Below, one piece after another: positions 2,113 to 42,924 of a stretch of DNA of 64,000 nucleotides. The stretch's first letter is position 1. Each line of letters opens with the position of its first letter. Made by a program: the position numbers and the translations under genes. This DNA comes from Squalus acanthias (taxonomy: Eukaryota). The notes under the pieces were generated by a model, which was given only the letters and a program-made list of their open reading frames with translations, was not told the DNA's origin and made no database searches. The stretch lies in the NCBI GenBank assembly GCA_030390025.1, contig CM059432.1, positions 76,944,001-77,008,000 of the forward strand, written 5' to 3'.

Positions 2113-3525
2113 CTTCTTTGATGTAGCACTGGAGGCCTTGGTCCAGGGGGTATATTGGAGAGAGGTCCACTACACACAGGGGGTCAGAGGCTCTCAAGAC
2201 ACACCGTGAGAAGGCAGTGGGAGCAGATTGCCCAAGCCGTCAGTGCCATGAGTGTCGCTGCAAGGACCTGGATCCAGTCCCGCAAGAAATTTAATGACCT
2301 CACACAAGTGGTCAAGGTGAGTGAATGCATCTTCAAATGCCATATCCCACCAACTGCACCACAAGCCTCACACACTGCTCAATGCACCACACCCCCATCG
2401 CTCACCTACCAACAATCTCTAGCTATCACGGCTCATACCTCACAATCATAGCTTCACCTCACCCTCACACACTTACCACTACTGCAAGCCTCACACCCAC
2501 ATCTTGCACCTTGCACACAATGTCAGATATTCAACTGTGACACAGACACGACAGGCCAAATGGCCTCCTTCTGTGCATTAAATTTCTATGATTCTATGAC
2601 AGGCACATTACCCAAACACATTGCACCAAACTCACTGACATACTTCACTTTTCTGGAGGCCAAGGTTGCTCACAACCGGCATGAGCAGCAACAGAGAGGC
2701 TGGGGGCAAGCACGGCTGCACAACCTCACTGCGCTGGAGGAGACAGTGCTGCAGATAATTGGAGGGGCTGTCACTGAGGTCATGGCGAGTGGCGAGATTG
2801 AAAGCATTGATGATGATGGTATGCTCAGAAGAAGAATCCTTCTTCTCACATCCCACTTCCCCCTCATCGCACAATCTCTTCTCACTTACAAGCTACTGAT
2901 GGTGAAAGCATGCATATCTTGCTTCCCCCCTTCCCCTCACCACAACCCAACCCTTGAGCCTTTCTCCTTTCAGATGCTCAAGAACTGCCAGCAGCTCAGC
3001 CAGTGCAGAAAGAACTAGAGGAGGAGAGTGATGGAGAAGATGAGGCAACGTCACTCGCAGGCACCAGCTCAGAAAATGGCACTGGGCAAACTTTAGAGGG
3101 TAGTATAGAGGTGGGTCCTGCATGTGGTGAGTCACCGGGCACGAGTGGGTTGCAGACAGGCCAGGAGGAAAGGGTAGCACAGATGCCAGCTCCCCGGAGG
3201 GTGAGTTCGCGCATGAGTTCTGCTGCACAGGACTCAGATGCAGACTCCAATGGGGCGGCCTTCAGAAGACGGGTGAGGGACATGCACACAGAACTGCTTG
3301 GTGCAATGGCAGTCCTGCCAAAGAGCCTGTTGTCACTATCAAGGAGCATGGAGGAGTCCGGCTCTAACATTTGCGCGGAGCTTAGAGCCCATGCTGCCCA
3401 GGATGGAAGTGATGGGTGTGATGGGCGATGTCGCAGCTTCCATTGCAGCACAAGCGGAAGCGACCCAACATCTGAGTGCTGCAGTGGAAGCTCAGACTTC
3501 TGTCATGCAGGCTCAGCTTGCTGGC
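2113..3525 (+). pseudogene. Harbinger Myb/SANT-like DNA-binding partner gene, spliced (exon ends 2316; exon 2659-2818; exon from 2974); tail resumes ~10286-10540
   Basis: FDVALEALVQ..WEQIAQAVSAMSVAARTWIQSRKKFNDLTQVVK|gtgagt; gag|gcc, gatg|gtatgc and tttcag|at splice sites keep the frame into ORF 3003. Confidence 0.8.
2532..2595 (+). mobile_element. Ultra-short CR1 3' tail insertion in the Myb intron
   Basis: ggccaaatggcctccttctgtg + ctatgattctatga tail, flanked by TGACA/TGACA. Confidence 0.7.
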
Positions 3526-4399
3526 ACACATGGTTGCAGGGTAACCAAAGCTGGGAACTGAATGTTCCAGGGTACTCAACATTTAGGAAGGACAGACAAA
3601 AAGGAAAAGGAGGTGGCGTAGCGCTGTTAATAAGGGATAAGATCGGTACGGTAGAGATAAAAGATCTTGGCTCAGCAGATTGTGATGTAGAACTGGAATC
3701 AGTTTGGGTGGAGCTAAGAAACAGCAAAGGGCGGAAAGCATTGGTGGGAGTTGTGTATAGGCCACCAAACAGTAGTGGTAATGTAGGGCACAGTATCAAT
3801 CAAGAAATTAGAAGTGCATGTAACAAGGGCAATACGGTAATCATGGGGGAGTTTAATCTACATATTGACTGGGCAAATCAAATTACCACTAATGGTGTGG
3901 AGGACAAATTCTTGTAATGCCGGCAAGATGGTTTCCTGGATCAATATGTGGAGGAACCAACCAGGGAACAGGCGATTCTGGATCTGGTACTGTGTAATGA
4001 GAAAGGGCTAATCAATAATCTTGTGGTAAAGGGGCCTTTAGGGACAAGTGACCATAATATGTTTAATTTTATATTAAGTTTGAGAGTGATGTAGTCCAAT
4101 CTGAAACTAAGGTCTTCAATCTAAACAGAGGAAACTACAACGGTATGAGGGACAAGTTGGTCATGGTAGATTGGGAGACTACACTAAAAGGTATGAAGGT
4201 GGACATACAATGGCTAACATTCAAGGAAATAATGCATAATTTACAACAAACATATATTCCTCTAGGGTATAAAACCCCAAAGGAAAGGTAATCCAACAGA
4301 TGCTGCCTGGCCTGCTGAGTATTTCCAGCATTTTCTGTTGTTATTTCAAATTTCCAGCATCCGCAGTATTTTGCTATTGTATTAGTGTTTGGTTCATTG

Positions 4400-7157
4400 C
4401 CACCTCTCTTCTAGGAATGCCCACCTTGAAGAAGTTCTGCTCTTTTCTCCGACGGGATTTCCGTTTGTCTCTTCAACCTTGTTCATCTTCATTGCTTTCA
4501 GTTTCCCTTCTCGTGTTTGATCAGGTATCTGCCAAGACTCGGTTTCACAGCCACATCTCTTTCCTCAGCAACTGTCTCCGGTTCCGACATATTCCACGTG
4601 GATTCCAATTGAACTTCCACCCTTCGTGTTTCGGATCGACCCAGCATTACAAATATCTCCAAGATATTCATTGTTCCTCGAACTACTGCTCTCGCCGCAT
4701 CTTGAGATCCACGCTCAACGCCATGCGCCGCCACATGAATACTCTCGACCTCTCTCTTCAGCAGCACCGACGCACTCTATCTCAAAGCTGTCCTGGTCCA
4801 TAGTTCCATTTCATCCTTCGACTCATCCGACGCTTCAACAAAAAACTTTTTTTCTTCCTTTCTGATGTCAAGGATCACAAGCTTCATCAACTCTTGGACA
4901 CCAATGCCCCTCCGGAACCTTCTTCCCCATCACTTTCCTCTGACCCCATCCCTTCTTCCAATCTCACCCCTGCCATGTTTTCACTATCCCCTCTGACCTT
5001 CCCATCTCTGACCCCGAACGATCAGTCCTCAGCAAAGGCCTGAGCTTCATCCCCTTACGCCCCCATCTCAATGAATTTTGAGCTCGGTACGATGCTGAGC
5101 TCTTTTTCCGTCACCTTCGTCTCCGTGCCCACTTCTTTGGCCAGGAGTCTTCCCCCCACACAGCTGACCCTTTCTTCCGCTTTCAAAATTCTCGTTCTAC
5201 CTGGAGCCCTCCCTCTGGCCTCTTACCCTCTCTAGATCTTTTCATTGCTAACTACCGATGTGACATCGACTGTCTCAATTTCTCTGCTCCCCTCTCACTC
5301 CAACCTACCTCCCTCTGAACTTGCAGCACTCCGTTCTCTCCGATCCAATCCTAACATTATCATTAAACCTGCTGATAAGGGTGGTGCTGTTGTTGTTTGG
5401 CGAACCGACCTCTACCGTGCGGAAGCTGAACACCAACTCTCCGACACCTCCTCCTACCTCCGCCTGGACCATGACCCCACTAGCAAACATCAAGCCATTG
5501 TTTCCAAGACTGTCACTGACCTCATCTCCTCTGGAGATCTTCCCTCCACGGCCGCCAACCTCATAGTCCCCCAACCCCGCACAGCCCGCTTCTACCTCCT
5601 TCCCAAGATCCACAAACAGGACTGCCCTGGTAGACCCATCGTTTCAGCCTGTTCTTGCCCCACGGAACTTATCTCTTCCTATCTTGACTCTATTTTTTCT
5701 CCCCTTGTCCAGTCTCTTCCCACCTACATTCATGACTCTTCCGACGCCCTCCGTCACTTTAACAGTTTCCAGTTTCCTGGCCCCGTCTCCTTTTCACTAT
5801 GCACGTCCAATCACCCTACACCTCCATCCCCCACCAGGACGGCCTGAGGGCGCTCCACTTCTTCCTTGAACAGAGGCCCAACCAGTCCCCATCCACCACC
5901 ACCCTCCTCCGCCTGGCTGAACTTGTTCTCACATTGAACAACTTCTCCTCTGACTCCACTCACTTCCTCCAAATTAAAGGTGTTGCTATGGGAACCCGCA
6001 TGGGCCCTAGCTATGCCTGCCTTTTCAAGGGATATGTGGAACATTCTTTGTTCCAGTCCTACTCAGGTCCCCTCCCTCACCTTTTTTTCCGGTACATCGA
6101 TGACTGTATCAGTGCCGTTTCCTGCTCTCGCCCTGAACTAGATAAGTTCATTCAGTTTAGTTCCAATTTCCACCCTTCCCTCACCTTCACATGGTCCATC
6201 TCCGACTCTTCTCTTCCCTTCCTTGACTTCTCTGTCTCCATTTCTGGCGATCGGCTTTCGACAAACATCCACTCCAAGCCCACTGACTCCCACAGCTACC
6301 TGGACTACACTTCCTCCCACCCCGCTTCCTGTAAGGACTCTATTCCATTCTCCCAGTTTCTCCGTCTCCGCTGCGTCTGTTCTGACAATGCCACCTTCCA
6401 TACCAGTGCTTCCGACATGTCTTCCTTTTTCCTCAACCGAGGATTCCCCTCTACTGTGGTTGACACGGCCCTTGACCGTGTCCGTTCCATTTCCCGCACT
6501 TCTGCTCTCACCCCTTCCCCTCCCTCCCAGAACCACGATAGGGATCCCCTTGTCCTCACCTTTCACCCCACCAGCCTCCACATTCAACGGATCATCCTTC
6601 GCCATTTCCGCCACCTCCAACGTGATCCCACCACCAAACGCATCTTCCCCTCACCTCCCCTTTCAGCATTCCGAAGGGACCGCTCCCTCCGCGACACCCT
6701 GGTCCACTCCTCAACCACCCCTAACAGCCCTTCCCCTTCGCCTGGCACCTTCCCATGCAAGCGCAGGAGATGCAACACATGCCCTTTTACCTCCTCCCTT
6801 CCCACTGTCCAGGGCCCCAAACACCCCTTCCAGGTGAAACAGCGATTTACTTGTACTTCTTGCAATTTAATATACTGTATTCGCTGCTCACGATGCGGTC
6901 TCCTCTACATTGGGGAGACCAAACGCAGATTGGGCGACTGTTTTGTGGAACACCTCCGTTCAGTCTGTAAGGTTGACCCTGAGCTTCTGGTCGCCTGTCA
7001 CTTTAATTCTCCGCTTCACTCCCACTCTGATCTCTCTGTCCTCGGCCTATTACATTGTTCCAATGAAGCTCAACGTAAGCTCGAGGAACAGCACCTCATC
7101 TTTCGATTAGGTACTATACAGCCTTCTGGACTCAACATTGAGTTCAACAATTTCTAA
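4400..7157 (+). pseudogene. PLE polyprotein: RT + Cys-rich linker + GIY-YIG endonuclease (frameshifts, stops)
   Basis: KPADKGGAVVV, FYLLPKIHK, GRPIVS, GVAMGTRMGPSYA, FFRYIDD, CKRRRCNTC, LIYCIRCSRCGLLYIGETKRRL, GLN. Confidence 0.93.
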
Positions 7158-7334
7158 CTATAACCCCTGCCCCCATTTTTCATGCTGTATGATTTTTCCA
7201 TTCCCATTTGCAACATTTTATCTCACCTGCCTCTTACATAAGCACAGTATATTCCTTCAATTCCTTCCTCCCCTCCACTCCCCCCACCCTGTCTCTGCAC
7301 CTGCTTAATATCTGTTACATCTCCAGCTTTTTCC

Positions 7335-8206
7335 AGTTCTGATGAAGGGTCCCAGACCTGAAACGTTGGGCAGAATTTTCATTGACCCGTGGAGGCGGGT
7401 TTGGAGGCAGGAGTGGTGGAAAAATAGCAGATTCGGGGGTCCCGAACCCATCCCACCCCCAACCCGCCTCCATGCCAGTTTCACAGGAGGCGGATACCCG
7501 ACCTGTGCTGGGACCCGCCTCCCCAAGGCGGGAAGGGGATTAGTGCCAATAAACTGCTGTTAACAGGTAGTTAACAGGCAGTTTTTTGCTTAATCCCTAT
7601 TTTTGGCCCTGAAGTGTGGGCTTCCCGACAGGCCGATTTAGCATGGTGGACCGTCGGTCTGGAGGGCTTGGAGGGGTCGAGATGTCCGGTGTGCAGGTGA
7701 GTGATGGGTGCATGAGTGCAGAGGTAAGTGTGTTTGGTGTGTGTAAAGTGTTTTAAAAACTTGTACTTACCTTAACTTTGTCCTGCAGGCTTCCTTCCTT
7801 CAGTTCTCGGGAGTCCCTCAGCTCACCGGCACAGAAAGCAGAATGGCCGCGGAGCTGTCAAAAGCTGCAGTCTCTGCTTTCTGTGCTGGATTGATTTCTA
7901 ACTCAGTCTAAGTACAGGGACTCAAGTTAGAAATCATATTGTCAGTGTTTGACAGCTTCACAGAGCTGTCAAATGCTGAAATTTCATCTGTCAAAAGCTC
8001 TTGACAGATGAAATTTCAATGGCTGACGTCACCTGTATCCAAGGGACCCTTGATTGGCCTGCTAAGCCCGCTGGGCGGGCTTAACAAGGTCAATCAAAGG
8101 AAAATACAGTGGGTTGGCCACAAGTCGATGGAGGTGGGACTACAACCCAAAAAGTGGGAGTGCCACCTCCATCACATCCCCATTGACAAAATCCAGCCCA
8201 TTAACT
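7335..8206 (+). ncRNA. Minimal hammerhead ribozyme motif of the PLE 3' pLTR, split by the MITE (parts 7335-7367 and 8200-8206)
   Basis: agtt-CTGATGA-agggtc(cca)gacct-GAAA-cg-TT ... aact; helix I agtt/aact is restored if the MITE and one TSD copy are removed. Confidence 0.75.
7368..8199. mobile_element. Harbinger-type MITE
   Basis: TIRs GGGCAGAATTTT / AAAATCCAGCCC; TSD GTT/ATT (CpG-type change); subterminal similarity to 52370-54112. Confidence 0.85.
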
Positions 8207-10789
8207 CTGTTTCTCTGTCCACGGATGCTGCCTGGCCTGCTGAGTATTTTCAGCATTTTCTGTTGTTGTTTTATAAAAGAAATTAAAGCTAGTATTAAGT
8301 CAAAGGAGGAAGCTTATAAAGTTGCCAGAAAAAGCGGTCAGCCTGAGGATTGGGATCTTTTTAGAAATCAGCAAAGGGGGACCAAGAAATTGATAAAGAA
8401 AGGGGAAATGGAATATGAGCACAAACTAGCGAAAAATATAAAAACGGATTGTAAAAGCTTCTATAGGTATGTGAAAAGGAAAAGACTGGCAAAGGTAAAT
8501 GTAAGTCCTTTACAGTCAGAGAAGGGAGAATTTATAATGGGGAATGAGGAAATGGCTTGGAAATTAAATAAATACTTTGTTTCTGTCTTCACGAAGGATG
8601 ACACAAAAAACCTCCCAGAAATACGAGAAAACCAAGGGTGTGGCGAGAATGAGGAACTTAAAGAAATTATTACTAGTAAAAAAACAGTACCAGCAAAATT
8701 AATTGGACTAAAAGTCGATAAATCTCAAGGACCAGATGACCTACATCCTAGGGTTTTGAAAGAGGTGGCCATTGGGATAGTGGACGCATTGGTTGTCATC
8801 TTCCAAAATTCTATAGATTCTGGTACGGTTCCTGCAGATTGGAGGATAGCAAATGTAACCCTGCTATTTAAGAAAGCAGGGAGAGAGAAAACGGGGAACT
8901 ACAGACCTGTTAGCCTCACATCAGTAGTTGGGAAAATGCTGGAATCTATTATAAAGGATGCAATAACTGGGCACTTAGAAACTAATAGTAAGATTGGGCA
9001 GAGTCAACATGGATTTACGAAAGGGAAGTCCTGTTTGACAAACCTATTGGAGTTCTTTGAGGATGTAACTAGTGGAGTAGACAAAGGGGAACCAGTAGAT
9101 GTGGTGTATTTGGATTTTCAGAAGGCCTTCGATAAGGTCCCACACAGGAGGTTGGTGAACAAAATTAGAGCACATGGAATTGGGGGTAATATACTAGCAT
9201 GGATTGAGAATTGGTTAACAGACAGAAAACAAAGAGTAGGGATAAACGGGTCTTTTTCAGGATGGCAGGCTGTGACTAGTGGGGTACCGCAAGGATCGGT
9301 GCTTGGGCCCCAGCTATTCACAATCTATATCAATGATTTGGATGAGGGGACTAAATGTAACATTTCCAAATTTGCTGATGACACAAAGCTAGGTGGCAGT
9401 GTCAGTTGCGAAGAGGATGTGAAGAGGCTTCAAGGGGATCTTGACAGGCTCAGTGAGTGGGCGAGAACATGGCAGATGGATTATAATGTGGATAAATGTA
9501 AAGTTATCCACTTTGGTAGAAAAAACAGAAAGCAGAGTATTTCCTAAATGGTGAAAGATTGGGGAATGCAGATGCTCAAAGGGACCTGGGTGTCCTTGTA
9601 CACGAGTCACTGAAAGTGAATGTGCAGGTGCAGCAAGCCATTAGGAAGGCAAATGGTATGCTGGCCTTCATTACAAGAGGATTTGAGTACAGGAGTAAAG
9701 AAGTCTTACTCCAATTATATAGGGCCTTGGTGAGACCACACCTGGAGTACTGTGTGCAATTTTGGTCTCCTTACCTAAGGAAGGATATACTTGCCATACA
9801 GGGAGTGCAACGAAGGTTCACGAGATTGATTCCTGGGATGGTGGGACTGTCGTATGAGAAGAGATTGAGTAAATTGAATTCAGAAGAATGAGAGGGGATC
9901 TCAATGAAGCATACAAAATTATTACAGGGCTTGATAGGGTGGATGCTGGGAGAATGTTTCCCTTGGCTGGGGAGTCTAGAACCAGGGACCACAGCCTCAG
10001 GATAAAGGGTAGGCCATTCAGGACTGAGATGAGAAGAAATTTCTTCACACAGAGGGTGGTGAATCTTTGGAATTCTCTACCCCAGAGGGCTGTGGAGGCT
10101 CAGTCATTTAGTATATTCAAAACAGAAGTCACTAGATTTCTGACTAGTAAGGGCATCAAGGGATATGGCGATAAGGCCGGTGAATGGAATTGAGGCAGAA
10201 GATCAGCCATGATCTCATTGAATGGCGGAGCAGGCTCGAAGGGCTGAAAGGCCTACTCCTGCTCCTATTTCTTATGTTCTTATGTAAGCTCAAACAGCTC
10301 TCATGCAGGATGACAGCAGTTGTACTCCCACACCTGCCACACCACCAGAGCCATTGCAGTTGCCTGTCTGTCAGCCAGCCCAGACTGCTGCCGCCCAGGC
10401 CGAGATGGTGTAGTCTACAGTCGGGCCTTCTGGGCCCAGAGCTGCTCGAGGTCATCCTGCAAGACCATCTGTAGTCTCCCCCACAGAAAGTCAGCAACCT
10501 TCCACCAGCCATGTTGCAGCCCCTGGGGTAGCACTGTGTAGGAGCACTAGAATAGGCAAAGGCACACAAAAGACAGACACTAAGGGAATGCACAAGGGTG
10601 ATTAGTTGTCTTTATTATGTAAGATTCAAATTAATCATTTATAAATTTTGTTTGGAATGTTTGTTTTGTGGTGGCTTTCATTTCAGCTTTGTGCCCAAGA
10701 GGACACTGTGATGTTCCGTGACAGAGAGATGGTAAGGAGGGGAACTATTGAGCAACGCGGATCTGGGGCTTCATTCATTGGAACCGGAG

Positions 10790-15534: not shown

Positions 15535-16962
15535 TTTTTTTTTAATTCATTCATGGGATGTGGGCATCGCTGGCAAGGCCAGCATTTATTGCCCATCTCT
15601 AGTTGCCCTTGAGAAGGTGGTGAAGAGCCGCCTTCTTGAACCGTTGCAGTCCATGTGGTGAAGGTACTCCCAGACTGCTGTTAGGGAGGGAGTTCCAGGA
15701 TTTTGACCCAGTGACAATGAAGGATCGGCGATATACTTCCAAGACAGGATGGTGTGTGACTTGGAGGGGAACTTGGAGGTGGTGGTGTTCCCATGCGCCT
15801 GCTGCCCTTGTCCTTCTAGGTGGTAGAGGTCGCGGGTTTGGGAGGTGCTGCCGAAGAAGCCTTGGCGAGTTGCTGCAGTGCATCTTGTAGAGGGTACACA
15901 TTGCAGCCACAGTACGCCGGTGGTGGAGGGAATGAATGTTTAAGGTGGTGGATGGGGTGCCAATCAAGCAGGCTGCTTTGTCCTGGATGGTGTTGAGCTT
16001 CTTGAGTGTTGTTGGAGTTGCACTCATCCAGGCAAGTAGAGAATATTCCATCACACTCCTTACTTGTGCCTTGTAGATGGTGGAAAGGCTTTGGGGAGTC
16101 AGGAGGTGAGACACTCGCCACAGAATACTTAGCCTCTGACCTGCTCTTGTTGCCACAGTATTTATGTGGCTGGTCCAGTTAAGTTTCTGGTCAATGGTGA
16201 CCTCCAGGATGTTGATGGTGGGGGATTCGGCGATGGTAATGCCGTTGAATGTCAAGGGACAGTGGTTAGACTCTCGCTTGTTGGAGATAGTCATTGCCTG
16301 GCACTTGTGTGGCGCGAATGTTACCTGCCACTTATCAGCCCAAGCCTGAATGTCGTCCAGATCTTGCTGCATGCGGGCATTTACAGCTTCATTATCTGAG
16401 GAGTTGTGAATGGAACTGAACACTGTGCAGTCATCAGCGAACATCCCCATTTCTGACCTTATGTTGGAGGGAAGGTCTTTGATGAAGCAGCTGAAGATGG
16501 TTGGGCCTAGGACACTGCCCTGAGGAACTCCTGCAGCGATGTCCAGGGACTGAGATGATTGACCTCCAACCACCACAACCATCTTCCTTTGTGCTAGGTA
16601 TGACTCCAGCCAGTGGAGAGTTTTCCTCCCGATTCCCATTGACTTCAGTTTTACTAGGGCTCCTTGATGCCACACTCAGTCAAATGCTGCCTTGATGTCG
16701 AGGGCAGTCACTCTCACCTCACCTCTGGAATTCAGCTCCTTTGTCCATGTTTGGACCAAGGCTGTAATGAGGTCGGGAGCAGAGTGGTCCTGACGGAACC
16801 CAAACTGGGCATCAGTGAGTAGGTTATTGGCGAGTAAGTGCCGCTTGATAGCACTGTCGATGACACCTTCCATCACTTTGCTGATGATTGAGAGTAGACT
16901 GATGGGGCGGTAATTGGCCGGGTTGGATTTGTCCTGCTTTTTGTGGACAGGACATACCTGGG
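15535..16962 (-). mobile_element. Non-LTR retrotransposon RT fragment with 3' end (CR1/L2/Jockey group, clade unresolved)
   Basis: [39 protein letters not shown]-rich tail near 15535. Confidence 0.9.
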
Positions 16963-21123: not shown

Positions 21124-21209
21124 AGTATTAGCAATGGCTATAAGTATATTAAATAGGTTTTGTGATACTACAAAACCTACTTTATATACTCATAGCCATT
21201 GCTAATACT
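21124..21209. repeat. Inverted repeat, 40-bp arms, 6-nt loop
   Basis: Arms 21124-21163 and 21170-21209 match at 37/40. Confidence 0.9.
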
Positions 21210-26379: not shown

Positions 26380-29300
26380 CTGTAAAGAGCGCGAGAGGAG
26401 CGGCGAGGGGAGCAGGGTCAGTGGCGCAGGAGTGGTGCAGCGTGGACCAGCAGCGGGGGCAGGGCCCAGGGAAGGTGCAGCACGGGCCAACAGCGAGGTC
26501 GGGAGGATCACACTGCATCCTATCAAACCCAGGCAGAGAGGACCTGCAGGAAGGAGGGAGGATGACAGTAGGAGTATGTTTGTGTGTGTGTGCTAGGCTG
26601 ATGTAGCAGAGCCTGGTAACCAATCGTCTTGGATCCCCTTGCCATTGGACCAAGACCTTGCTTTGTCAAGCCCGTATGGTAGCTGATGTGCAACGGCCAC
26701 CCCACGATAAAAGAATTCACGCACAGGCATCTTCCATCCTTTAAAATGAAGTTCGGGCCCAGGAACGTCAGGACCCTCATGGACAACCCCAACAGCAACA
26801 GACCAGAACGCCATACTGCTATCGTTGCCCAGGAGCTCAGACGTTTCGACATAGACATCGCCGCCCTAAGCGAGACCCAGCGGGCAGGGGAAGGCCAGCT
26901 CAAGGAGCAAGGCGGTGGTTACATCTTCTCTGGAAAGGCAAACTTGAAGAAGAACGCCGCCTCCATGGGGTAGGCTTCGCCATAAAAAATGAGCTAGTTG
27001 GACGTCTCAGAGACTCCACTTGCGGAATAAACGAACGCCTCATGACTCTTCGGCTCACCCTAGCCTGCAACCAGTGCGCTACGGTCATCAGTGTGTATGC
27101 CCCAACACTGGAAGCCACAGACGAGACCAGAGAGGAATTCTACTCCAGCCTCGAACAATCCCTATCCCGAGTCCCAACGGGCGACAAGCTGATCCTCCTT
27201 TGCGACTTTAACGCCAGAGTTGGAAAGGACACAGACCTCTGGGGAGGTGTGATCGGCAGAGAGGAGGTAGGGAAAGCCAACTCCAACGGCACCCTCCTCC
27301 TGACGAAATGCTTAGAACATTGCTTTGTCATAACCGACACCTTGTTCTGTCAGAGAGACAGAAGTACAAGGTTTCATGGCAACACCCTCGCTCCAAGCAC
27401 TGGCATCTGCTGGACTACATCTTCGTCCGAGCGAGGGACCACAAGGACGTCCGCATCACCCGTGCCATGACAGTAGCTGACGACTGCTGGACAGACTACC
27501 GCCTAATCCGCTCTGTCATCTCCACCAATGTAGCCCCAAAACAGCGGCGGCAGGAAAATCAACGCTGGAGCACTCAAAGACCCTGCTAAGAAAGCCCTAT
27601 TCAGCCTGCGCCTCACAACCAACCTGACGACTCCCAGTGATTCAGAGACACAGAGTGTCCACAGCGTCTGGTCTGCATTCAAGGCCTCCATAATCAGCAC
27701 CTGTGAAGAGACGCTCGGTCACTCGACCAGGAAACACCAAGACTGGCTTGATGAGAACGACCAGGAGATCCAGGAGCTAATAAGCTGCAAGCGCAAGGCA
27801 TTCCTGATCTGGAAACAGCAACAGAACTCGAGAGCAAGAAAGCAGCTCTACAGATGCCTGAAGGCCGAGGTCCAACAAAAAACTTGCGACCTAAAGAACA
27901 GATGGTGGGTGGAGAAAGTGCAGGAGATCCAGCAGCTAGCCGACAACCACGACGTGCGTGGATTCTTTAGCGCAGTCAAGACCACCTACGGCCCAAGCAT
28001 CCAAGGTCCTACCCCACTGCGGGCCAAGAACGGAGAGGTACTCATCAAGGACAGAGAGGCAGTCAGTGCCCGCTGGAAGGAACACTTCGAAGGTCTCCTT
28101 AACCGAGACTCTGCCTTCGACGCGAGTGTCCTCAACTCCGCTACCCGCCACCACCTCAGCACAACCCCAGCCCGGCATAAGGTTGAAAAGGCCATCCGAC
28201 AACTGAAGAACAACAAGGCCAAGATGGAATCCCCGCTGAGGCAGTAAAGCATGGCGGAAAAACACTATTGGCGCGAAAACATGAACTCGTTTCTCTTATT
28301 TGGAAGGAGGAGAGCATGCCAGGAGATCTCAGAGACGCCGTAATCATGACCATCTTCAAGAAAGGTGACAAGTCCAATTGTGGTAATTACAGAGGAGTCT
28401 CCCTGCTGTCTGCCACAGGGAACGTCATCGCAAGACTCCTCCTCAATCGCCTTCTCCCAGTGGCTGAAGAGCTCCTCCCAGAGTTGCAATGTGGATTCTG
28501 CCCACTAAGGGGCACAATGGACATGATCTTCACCACGCGTCAACTACAAGAGAAATGCAGGGAACAGCACCAACTGCTGTACATGGCCTTCTTTGACCTC
28601 ACAAAGGCCTTCGACACTGTCAACCATGAGGGATTATGGAGTGTCCTCCTCAAATTCGGCTGCCCTCAAAAGTTTGTCACCATCCTCCACCTGCTTCACG
28701 ACGGCATGCAAGCCGTGATCCTGACCAATGGATCCACCACAGACCCAATTCAAGTACGGACCGGGGTCAAGCAAGGCTGTGTCATCGCACCAACGCTCTT
28801 CTCGACCTTCCTTGCTGCAATGCTCCATCTCACCCTCAGTAAGCTCCCCGCTGGAGTGGAGCTAATCTACAGAACAAACGGGAAACTGTTCAACCTCCGT
28901 CGCCTCCAGTCCAAATCCAAGGTCGTCCCATCCTCTGTCGTCGAATTACAGTATGCAGACGATGCTTGCATCTGCGCTCACTCGGAGGTTGAACTCCAAA
29001 CCATCGTCAATACCTTCACCGAAGTGTACGAGAGCATGGGCCTTACACTAAACATCCGTAAGACAAAGGTCCTCTACCAACCTGCCCCAGCCACACAGTA
29101 CTGCCCTGATTATCAAAATCCACGACAAGGCCTTGGACAACGTGGACCACTTTCCATACCTCACGAGCCTACTGTCAACAAGGGCAGACGTCGATGACGA
29201 AGTCCAACACCGCTTTCGGTGTGCCAGTGCAGCCTTCGGTCGCCTGTGGAAGAGAGTGTTTGATGACCAGGACCTCAAACCCGGCACTAAGCTCATGGTC

Positions 29301-39222: not shown

Positions 39223-40590
39223 CCCCCAGATTTTGTGGTGGGTAATGAAGGTAAACTGTCAGCAATCGCCAACATTACCCCTCTGAAACTGACCGCAACT
39301 TCAGGATTTAGCACATGCGCATCTAAACGCGGAAATCCTGAACTTGTGGTCAGTCATTCGCTGCTCCAACACAGGCTGTACTGTGGACTCCCTGCACCAC
39401 CAGCCGCCACCCCCCGCCCCCCCCACCCCCCGCCCCCCACCACACCCCATAGCCGGCAATCAGTGAAATCAGTGGAACTGATGAAAACCTGAGCTTTTCC
39501 ACACTAATATCGCTGTTAAAAACCCCATTAAATGTTAAGCCTTGTTGGAATAGGTATAACTGGGGTTTTAACAGCATATTGACTGCTAAACAACCATTCT
39601 GGCCCTGAAAAATTAATTTCCATATTTTGTCAATTTTCACCATTATGATAAAAAATGCATCTTTAAAAAGAATGTTTTTAAAAGTTTTTTCCTGATATTT
39701 CAGATTCTACCTTATCCCCATTTGAAAGTCCTAGGGCTAGAAATTGGCTTCCTTAGCGCCTCCCGTTATGGGGTGCAATAACGGGGCGCTAATGACTTAC
39801 CGCCCGGACGCGGCGATGTTACCGTCACCTGTGAAATTTACCTGGCAGTTTGCTGTGGCGGCGGTAATCTCTAGCGCCACAATCTCCTGCGCCTGGAGAG
39901 AGTGACGTCATCCGGCTGCGCATCGCCCCAGTAGCACCCTGGACCAGAACTTCGGTTCTGCCCCCTGCAGCATTGCCGGGCGAAAACACCGGCAGCTGCA
40001 GGATGCGTTCATCGGGAGGCCGGGCGCTTCGGAAACGATACTTAAAGGCGAGGTGGCCGAGGTAGGGAAAAAAATAATCAAATGCTCTTTCTCTTTTTTT
40101 CCTTTGTCTTCGCCAGCGATCAATCAGCCTGGCACTCTGCTGCAGTGCATCAAACTGATCGGGCCGGATTGCGGTAAGTTTTCCCCTTGCAGAGCCTGCA
40201 GCAATGGCCCTTCCCTTTAAGGGAGGGAAAGAGCCTTCCAACGCGGCAGCGCTGCTGCCTGTTGCACTCCAGGAAGGAAGTGGCGCGCTTGATTTAGCAC
40301 TCCACTTCCTTCCTGGAGCGCTAAAACCCAATTTTTTTAAAGCTGGGAATGATTAGCGCCTGGCGCTAACTTACCCAGCTTTCAAAAGTTACCGCCCCTA
40401 AATGGGGCGAGACCAAATTTCTAGCCCCTAATCTTTATTTTGCTCTCTGTACCATTTTTAAAAAGTGAGGCTAAAAGCTGCTTTTTACTTCCTGGTTTGC
40501 TATGTGTGAAAATTCTTCAATGTGATTGGCTGCTTAGGCAGCTTGATGATGATGTGGCTGCATCACTCTAGAATCCCCTATTCAAGGAAT
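39223..40590. mobile_element. Copy of the 24203-24968 family, hosting a nested MITE
   Basis: Long alignment with 24210-24830 (tgaaactgaccgcaacttcagga..tgtgattggctgcttag). Confidence 0.8.
39734..40427. mobile_element. Young GC-rich Harbinger-type MITE
   Basis: Perfect 12-bp TIR GGGCTAGAAATT, TSD CTA/CTA; CpG-rich; resembles 1060-1876. Confidence 0.92.
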
Positions 40591-41507: not shown

Positions 41508-41763
41508 TGAATATTTTAAAGAATATATATTAGAGAGGGTGCAATTATATTATGCGATATATAAGGATTGACATTCTGCTGAGCCCAATTGGAAGTTGCA
41601 TCCAGCGCTCTGTTGCTAAAGATTCTGATAAAAAGTTTTCTGCAACTCCCTTTGAGTAGCTGATACTGTCTTTCAGAATGCGGAGATGCCGGTGTTGGAC
41701 TGGGGTGGACAAAAGTGAGAAGTCGCACAACACCAGGTTATAGTCCAACAGTTTTATTTGAAA

Positions 41764-41801
41764 TCACAAGCTTTCGGAGCTGCTGCCCCTTCGTCAGGTG
41801 A
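41764..41801 (-). ncRNA. Minimal hammerhead ribozyme motif (intact core)
   Basis: tcac-CTGACGA-aggggc(agca)gctcc-GAAA-gc-TT-gtga; helix I tcac/gtga; palindromic AAGCTT at helix III. Confidence 0.75.
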
Positions 41802-41812
41802 AATATTTGACT

Positions 41813-41850
41813 TCACCTGACGAAGGGGCAGCAGCTCCGAAAACTTGTGA
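41813..41850 (+). ncRNA. Minimal hammerhead ribozyme motif (helix III palindrome broken by G>A)
   Basis: tcac-CTGACGA-aggggc(agca)gctcc-GAAA-ac-TT-gtga. Confidence 0.65.
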
Positions 41851-42924
41851 TTTCAAATAAAACTGTTGGACTATAACCTGGTGTTGTGCGACTTCTCACT
41901 TTTGTCTTTCAGAAGTTAGGGCACCAGGGTTGCCGAGAGTGTGTCAGTATTTCCAAGAGCTAACTACAGTGTGTCAATATTTCCAGAGGGCCCCCAATCC
42001 TGAAAAGTTCAAAGACCACTGGACTATAAACAGTCTTAATCTTCCCTCCAATACTAAGAGCAGAAGGTCGCAAGAGCAACATTTCATTTTGTTCTCAATA
42101 GAAGTATACTCCAGGCATTTCAGTCCATTGTGCATACATTATATCTAGATAACTTCATTTCATTTTCTGGCCTGGTCTTCATACTTTAAGATAAAATCTC
42201 TGTTCTTTTAAAGAATTTAAAATGCATATCACAAATTAGGACTTTAAATCTTGAGTTTCTATGTTTTATACACATTTTTACTATGCTATCATCTTTGTCC
42301 TGTTTCTTTAACAAAAGTAAGATTAATAAATTGCTAATTTTACAGAACTAGGCAACGAGTCATTATGGAACAAGTTCATTTTATTTCTGTTCGATTAATT
42401 TTCACCAAGCTTGGTTGGGTTCCACTGGAGTACAGATGCCAAATCTATTTGATTTTTATTACCTATAGAAATAACCAGTATGGACTACTACTCCCTGGCT
42501 GCATAATTTAACACATTGATATTTAAAAAAATATTTCTTATACTTCGAGGTCTAGTACCAGAACAAATATTTTATCTATAAAATCAGCAGCAATTTAATA
42601 ATCTGTTTTACCATAGCTCTACTTTACTGAGTGAAGTGTAAGATTAAAGTTCCTTCATGCCTACTTTTAAAACAAGGGTCAAATGAAAGTTACTACTTGT
42701 GATTCCCCATTTACCAAGTTCATATCTTATAATCTGTGCCATTGGGAAAATTCCAAACAGATGCAAAAATGCTTTCTTACAGGATAAAGGATAAATAGGT
42801 GAATGAAGCAGCTGAGGCTGTTCTTGCAAACCTCCAGTTTATTTTCTTTCATACACTAGTTTTAGCAAAAAAGTTGAAATGAGTATAAGGTGCAGTTCTC
42901 TTGAGACTATGTTCACTGGAGCAG

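Follow-up and report, generated by a model that had tools for sequence, protein, structure and literature searches.

A compact hammerhead palindrome in the Squalus acanthias genome formed by two head-to-head ends of a coding Penelope-like element, with arm starts clustered at a predicted transcription start

EN+ Penelope-like elements (PLEs), such as Pen2a_Av and the D. virilis Penelope, are described in the accessible parts of three reports (PMC3846280, PMC8557442, PMC2377424) as inserting with head-to-head arms within a target-site duplication (TSD). They carry a tail of 30-40 bp on one side only, ending near the ORF start, and a TATA box plus a TCACT initiator-like motif in the pLTR; this pair of motifs is described for the rotifer pLTR (PMC3846280), and the D. 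virilis element as TATA-less (PMC2377424). The origin of the inverted repeat and the tail is given as undefined in one of these texts (PMC8557442) and as antisense self-priming in another (PMC3846280). Poseidon of Anolis carolinensis (PAc), according to the available part of an in vitro report (PMC11167929), cuts and extends both target strands, is a predicted dimer, and has two adjacent reverse transcription (RT) start sites that bound the tail. The family described here would resemble PAc in having two tail-bounding RT start sites ~100 nt past the hammerhead, in using both strands and in the predicted dimer. It differs in that the PAc ORF starts inside the hammerhead and ours at +129; inverted insertions and run-off at the RNA start are not treated in the part of the PAc report available to us (PMC11167929).

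Minimal hammerheads of metazoan PLEs, as far as the accessible text describes them (PMC4209133), have the features found here: a CUGANGA core, an extra base before helix II, G10.1-C11.1, a 4-bp helix I and a palindromic helix III. The same source interprets opposite-strand hammerhead pairs 100-700 bp apart as truncated PLEs. Non-LTR retrozymes, as presented in the available part of a preprint (10.64898/2026.07.22.740005), are likewise short, non-coding and PLE-derived with a type I hammerhead; they are arranged as head-to-tail tandems, whereas the insert analysed here is head-to-head with a variable centre, a tail and a TSD.

We analysed a 64,000-nt stretch (the window), in which the initial annotation had described a palindromic insertion with a hammerhead motif on each strand. 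Sequence comparison shows that it consists of the 3' end of an autonomous coding PLE, present twice in head-to-head arrangement inside one target duplication. Its two inverted arms (41708-41802 and 41812-41906) are 95 nt each and 99% complementary, with one mismatch and 9 nt between them. We number positions from an initiator-like A in the parent (+1), located within TCACTTC; TATATAT, a consensus match and predicted promoter element, begins 30 nt upstream. The left arm (41708-41802, minus strand) is the 3' part of the pLTR, +3 to +97. Outside it lies a 29-bp stretch (41679-41707, minus strand) with no counterpart on the right arm, corresponding to +98 to +126 and stopping 3 nt short of the parent ATG. 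The tail-less right arm (41810-41906, plus strand) starts exactly at +1, the predicted transcription start, behind a G supplied by neither arm, and runs to +93/+97, its last 4 nt being common with the duplication. Junction comparison leaves a 7-nt spacer (41803-41809) absent from both arms, its final base being the G that precedes +1; such centres vary between copies. The 95-bp arms and their single mismatch thus stand as first annotated, and the 9-nt loop shrinks to 7 nt of sequence foreign to the parent. A 12-nt direct repeat flanks the insert (41667-41678 and 41903-41914, both plus strand); the 12-bp duplication annotated earlier is real as a direct repeat, but the first 4 nt of its right-hand copy also fit the element, so its length is 8-12 nt.

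Two other copies, L046 and L047, carry the same end as the window arms attached to long ORF pieces with RT and GIY-YIG. The parent, L047, has a 716-aa ORF piece with RVT_1 (E 2.6e-8) followed by GIY-YIG (E 8e-5), and the window arms match it at 124/125 bases (left arm plus tail) and 95/96 bases (right arm). In L052 the 29-bp piece continues into the ORF ATG, and it is therefore the PLE tail. Four features of an EN+ PLE are present at the insert: an RT-GIY-YIG parent, an inverted 5'-truncated pLTR copy, a tail at one end (29 bp) and a TSD (12 nt). The earlier attribution to a PLE is borne out by these features and by arms 99% identical to a copy coding for RT and GIY-YIG; the same identity supports the claim of a recent insertion, and proteins only 32% identical support that of a family different from the PLE at 4298. 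The head-to-head layout itself is already published and the locus is an ordinary one among thousands: the 3.7 Gb genome contains 2,484 exact matches to a 36-mer from the hammerhead, and a sister variant is commoner still. Compared with the EN+ PLEs in the accessible text of the three reports (PMC3846280, PMC8557442, PMC2377424), the window insert differs in having no ORF between its arms, and its family in arm starts that pile up at the initiator with an excess of G; those texts invoke self-priming or leave the inversion unexplained. The opposite-strand pairs as described in the available part of PMC4209133 differ too: here <20 nt separates the hammerheads, and one of them has lost its helix III palindrome.

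The core pattern places one hammerhead on each strand, at 41768-41797 (minus) and 41817-41846 (plus), confirming the annotated motifs; the window holds four matches against 1.18 expected, and 4/100 shuffles reach four. The left-arm motif (41762-41801, minus strand) is a complete minimal type I hammerhead, with helix I UCAC/GUGA, CUGACGA, the extra A, helix II, GAAA and palindromic AAGCUU. The right-arm motif (41813-41850, plus strand) has the core boxes, helices I and II and the extra base, and lacks the palindrome: the sole arm mismatch, a G>A change, falls in its helix III (AAACUU). Rfam hammerhead models gave no match in the searched sequence. The only Rfam hits were to hairpin-type miRNA models below cut-off, and short hairpins at 21132-21202 and 40258-40321 of the window lie far below it. 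Across families helix I is TCAC/GTGA, TTAC/GTAA or AGTT/AACT and helix III is AAGCTT or AACGTT, so the helix covariation that the initial annotation wanted checked is found, as helices preserved through compensatory change. The loop of helix II varies (AGC, AGCC, AGCA or longer) on several backgrounds.

Folding prediction gives a single hairpin for the whole insert (-179 kcal/mol, z -26). An arm by itself forms helices I and II, with a fold no better than that of shuffles (z -1.35). These predictions agree with the earlier suggestion that a read-through hairpin would compete with the ribozyme fold. No hammerhead dimer can form in cis, because one transcript contains one sense hammerhead and its complement. 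With the helix III palindrome of the right arm broken as well, ribozyme activity at the window locus is unlikely, and the hammerheads would be passengers in the 5' UTR, silenced by the hairpin in read-through RNA. Arms beginning at the hammerhead cut site, +38, number 391 against 175 at +40, these being the two positions counted; at 30 such loci about 10 are GTGA microhomology joins and two are mutated long copies. We rejected recombination at the cut site: discordance between arms seemed higher 5' of +38, but linkage in 475 arms revealed mosaics over several intervals with no clean break. Such mosaic haplotypes point to frequent template switching or conversion.

Where do arms begin? Among 100 arms picked by the 36-mer only, 13 have their 5' end at +1, 32 fall in the eight positions -3 to +5, 16 in the 47 positions -4 to -50, and 52 are longer. 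Genome-wide counts are of exact sequence patterns that pass different fractions of random flanks, and arm-end counts are therefore comparable only roughly: at least 3,189 arms have G or A, mostly G, preceding +1; 2,370 diverge from the parent at -2; 2,602 end at +2, and 624 at -2. Of 100 listed arms diverging at -2, 97 are true junctions at +1 or -1, and 25 of these have C at -1 and possibly end there. At 30 loci most +2 ends turn out to be the opposite side of a +1 junction or to have been joined at microhomology; ends anywhere from +2 to +5 are also common, and those at -2 are again often the far side of a +1-type junction. We consider it likely that the +1 pile-up represents complete copies of the front end of the RNA, from a predicted capped start, and neither random breaks nor a separate ribozyme element. 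A splice acceptor at +1 was excluded, as spliced RNA would leave no upstream AG in DNA copies. RNA-labelled contigs cover the region with a summed depth that increases downstream of +1, depth here being confounded by copy number and DNA.

The base preceding arms at +1 was G in 46, A in 21, C in 25 and T in 8 of the matches listed, in which -2 is not T; at +40 it was G in 29, A in 45 and C in 26 of the matches listed. The G:A ratio is thus 46:21 at +1 versus 29:45 at +40 (P 7e-4). The 80:20 ratio among arms with G or A before +1 includes a class that can also be read as arms ending at -1. An inverted partner is present at 68 junctions. G precedes the arm in 22 of the 27 blunt ones, against an expectation of 24%; 12 of the 27 share one breakpoint, and counted per distinct breakpoint G is found in 7/10 (P 0.003). 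Support for a G excess is slight where bases were added at the junction (11 G and 12 C of 30), and likewise in single-arm copies (G in 9/26, P 0.09; six long, tandem or hidden-partner copies left out). An additional G at the 5' end marks copying of the cap in L1, according to the accessible text of PMC11702581. By analogy, the G before +1 may be a cap-templated C, kept or used as a one-base join. In the literature searched, which left most subscription papers outside its coverage, neither run-off at the start site nor an extra G was found for PLEs; relative to that literature, the start-site pile-up and the G excess are the new contribution.

In the second PLE family of the window (4298-7367), a TTAATAT box at 7305 precedes the initiator-like A of CCAGTTC (7335) by 30 nt, as in the first family. 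Ends predicted at the 7335 A gave 1,593 matches, and 18/30 loci were true junctions, 11 of those behind G. Ends at -2 number 558 and are about as frequent as those at +1, the nearby position with which they were compared; the start would therefore be spread over a few bases in this family. As judged from these sequences, the second family is a partial replication of the start-site geometry. Its 3' pLTR halts right after the hammerhead NUH at 7367 and other sequence follows; other copies continue.

How uniform are the palindromes as a population? There are 87 exact compact palindromes genome-wide, with many different centres among 50 places listed. Head-to-head spacing ranges from 61 to 3,046 nt in 44 pairs drawn from the first 100 hammerhead matches on contig 1, unselected, and arm lengths form a continuum reaching 3 kb. 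The tail is on exactly one arm in 164/172 pairs, on both in none and on neither in eight; a duplication of 12-13 nt accompanies 95 of the 164 one-tail pairs, and none was found in 17. As centres, spacing, tail and duplication pattern show no fixed unit, the palindromes must be built anew at each insertion. The initial annotation had offered a choice between an extreme truncation and a retrozyme-like non-autonomous unit, to be settled by copy number, uniform boundaries and the parent. The retrozyme-like unit is not supported, given heterogeneous centres, wide spacing, the lack of tandem units and a parent PLE that codes for protein. The choice as posed also overlooks that 5' ends accumulate at a single predicted start, so that the short form represents neither a family of fixed units nor truncation at random.

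The account that we think probable is that both target ends prime on sense RNA, with run-off from the capped start and joining of the cDNA ends. The element's enzyme would cut both target strands with a stagger of 12-13 nt, and each end would prime reverse transcription on sense RNA, one at the end of the tail, about +126 to +131, the other ~35 nt upstream, about +87 to +98. For the right arm, reverse transcription likely runs off the capped RNA start. Complete copying would leave only a stump, because the priming sites in the first pLTR are just 90-130 nt from the start. The cDNA 3' ends would then be joined bluntly, via microhomology or after the addition of a few bases. Arms that are long and truncated would come from use of the same priming sites in the downstream pLTR of a long transcript. 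In this scheme we infer the start site, the cap, the dimer and the joining route.

Retroviral minus strong-stop DNA is primed close to the start of the RNA and runs off as a short cDNA; the PLE stump would resemble it in exactly this. The two parts of an L1 twin-priming product copy different stretches of one RNA; PLE arms differ in holding the same stretch, starting at two fixed sites and using no poly(A). The likeness to twin priming, as the available text of PMC11702581 describes it, is that both target strands prime and that complete 5' ends have an extra G. A fuller version, to which we give even weight for and against, has a dimer priming both strands, one end per tail-bounding site and at times on different RNAs, with strong-stop products that carry a cap-derived G giving rise to thousands of insertions of a SINE-like hammerhead unit.

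Could one molecule supply both arms? In a single-template fold-back, one cDNA (or antisense template) would self-prime at its end and copy itself into the second arm, as self-priming on an antisense template was proposed for PLEs by Arkhipova et al. 2013 (PMC3846280, accessible text). Arms do usually have variants in common: site +53 differs in 5/61 pairs versus 32 when shuffled, and among pairs of two long arms 0/13 differ at -17 versus 7.4 expected. Since arms mostly agree at variant sites, most pairs should have a single locus or a single molecule as their source. Short partner arms that end before +90 (L186, L172) resemble fold-back synthesis, and CAG/TCAG pieces before +1 fit priming by a terminal C. 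However, in 15/86 informative pairs the arms differ at two or more linked variant sites, against a background mismatch of 1.3%; this count leaves out the set selected for two identical arms, and 14/17 such discordant pairs have a single duplication around the whole unit. Discordant arms cannot come from a self-folding cDNA; gene conversion at a later stage might create them, though it would need to be frequent. Nor does fold-back account for arm lengths without fixed order (the tail arm and the other arm are the longer in 66 and 69 pairs, with 61 equal or unresolved), or for a pile-up that tracks sense-strand promoter geometry. Tail-less single-arm copies (18/32 scored solo) show that +90 is a priming site of its own, used independently. 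With all this in view we regard fold-back as unlikely.

The pile-up itself might have a humbler cause, a stall, or a hot spot for microhomology, a little way 5' of hammerhead helix I, the remainder being ordinary 5' truncation. The CTTCACTTCACC repeat and the palindrome centre supply microhomology, ends are scattered over -3 to +5, and +1 is read from DNA alone. But arms begin at +1 whatever their partner (partner ends range from -489 to +57, and single-arm copies do the same), and a stall explains neither the G excess nor why an AT-rich box should lie 30 nt away in each of two families with 32% protein identity; we find such a cause quite improbable. A retrozyme- or MITE-like non-autonomous family spreading as a palindromic unit would be in keeping with the many similar-sized copies, among them the 87 exact compact pairs, with the conserved hammerhead and with the existence of PLE-derived retrozymes (bioRxiv 10.64898/2026.07.22.740005, available part). 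We give it very little credence: centres differ, lengths are continuous, the arms equal those of the coding parent, tandem arrays are absent and the unit does not end at the cleavage site. Two specific candidates were rejected, a non-LTR retrozyme on the head-to-head arrangement at the locus, with no head-to-tail units, and on the variable centres and length continuum, and a MITE or fold-back DNA transposon on the one-sided tail, the variable interior and the lack of symmetric terminal inverted repeats by the TSD.

If the fuller version, with two-ended priming on sense RNA and run-off at the capped start, is correct, it would account for the inverted arms, for a tail on one side only and for the minimal hammerheads scattered in large numbers through animal genomes, and PLE start sites would become readable from DNA alone. 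As a footprint, the copies also make base-level predictions for the published in vitro PLE system (PMC11167929): run-off at a capped +1 together with an added C, a single tail in each pair, and arms of mixed origin when two RNAs serve as templates. A caution follows for annotation: in such genomes, 'solo' hammerheads at scattered sites, like palindromes that contain hammerheads, would be by-products of PLE insertion, not independent ribozyme elements.

Several loci are more complex. At L221 and L301 an ORF piece is joined, in direct rather than inverted orientation, to an arm whose start is +1 or +38; such joins may be intermediates of pLTR-regenerating partial tandems. L172 is a complex insertion, as are L094 and L099: these have sequence resembling the target between their arms, or else inverted internal segments and ORF pieces in rearranged order. 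At L098, L103 and L036 a younger head-to-head pair lies beside or inside an older pair of a related subfamily, which would fit a preference of the endonuclease for its own sequence. At L001 a pLTR of the second PLE family harbours a compact palindrome of the window-insert family, inserted just 5' of its hammerhead. Elsewhere in the window, 2958-3917, 8066-9547, 15599-16675 and 28187-29197 are fragments of LINE-type RT or endonuclease.
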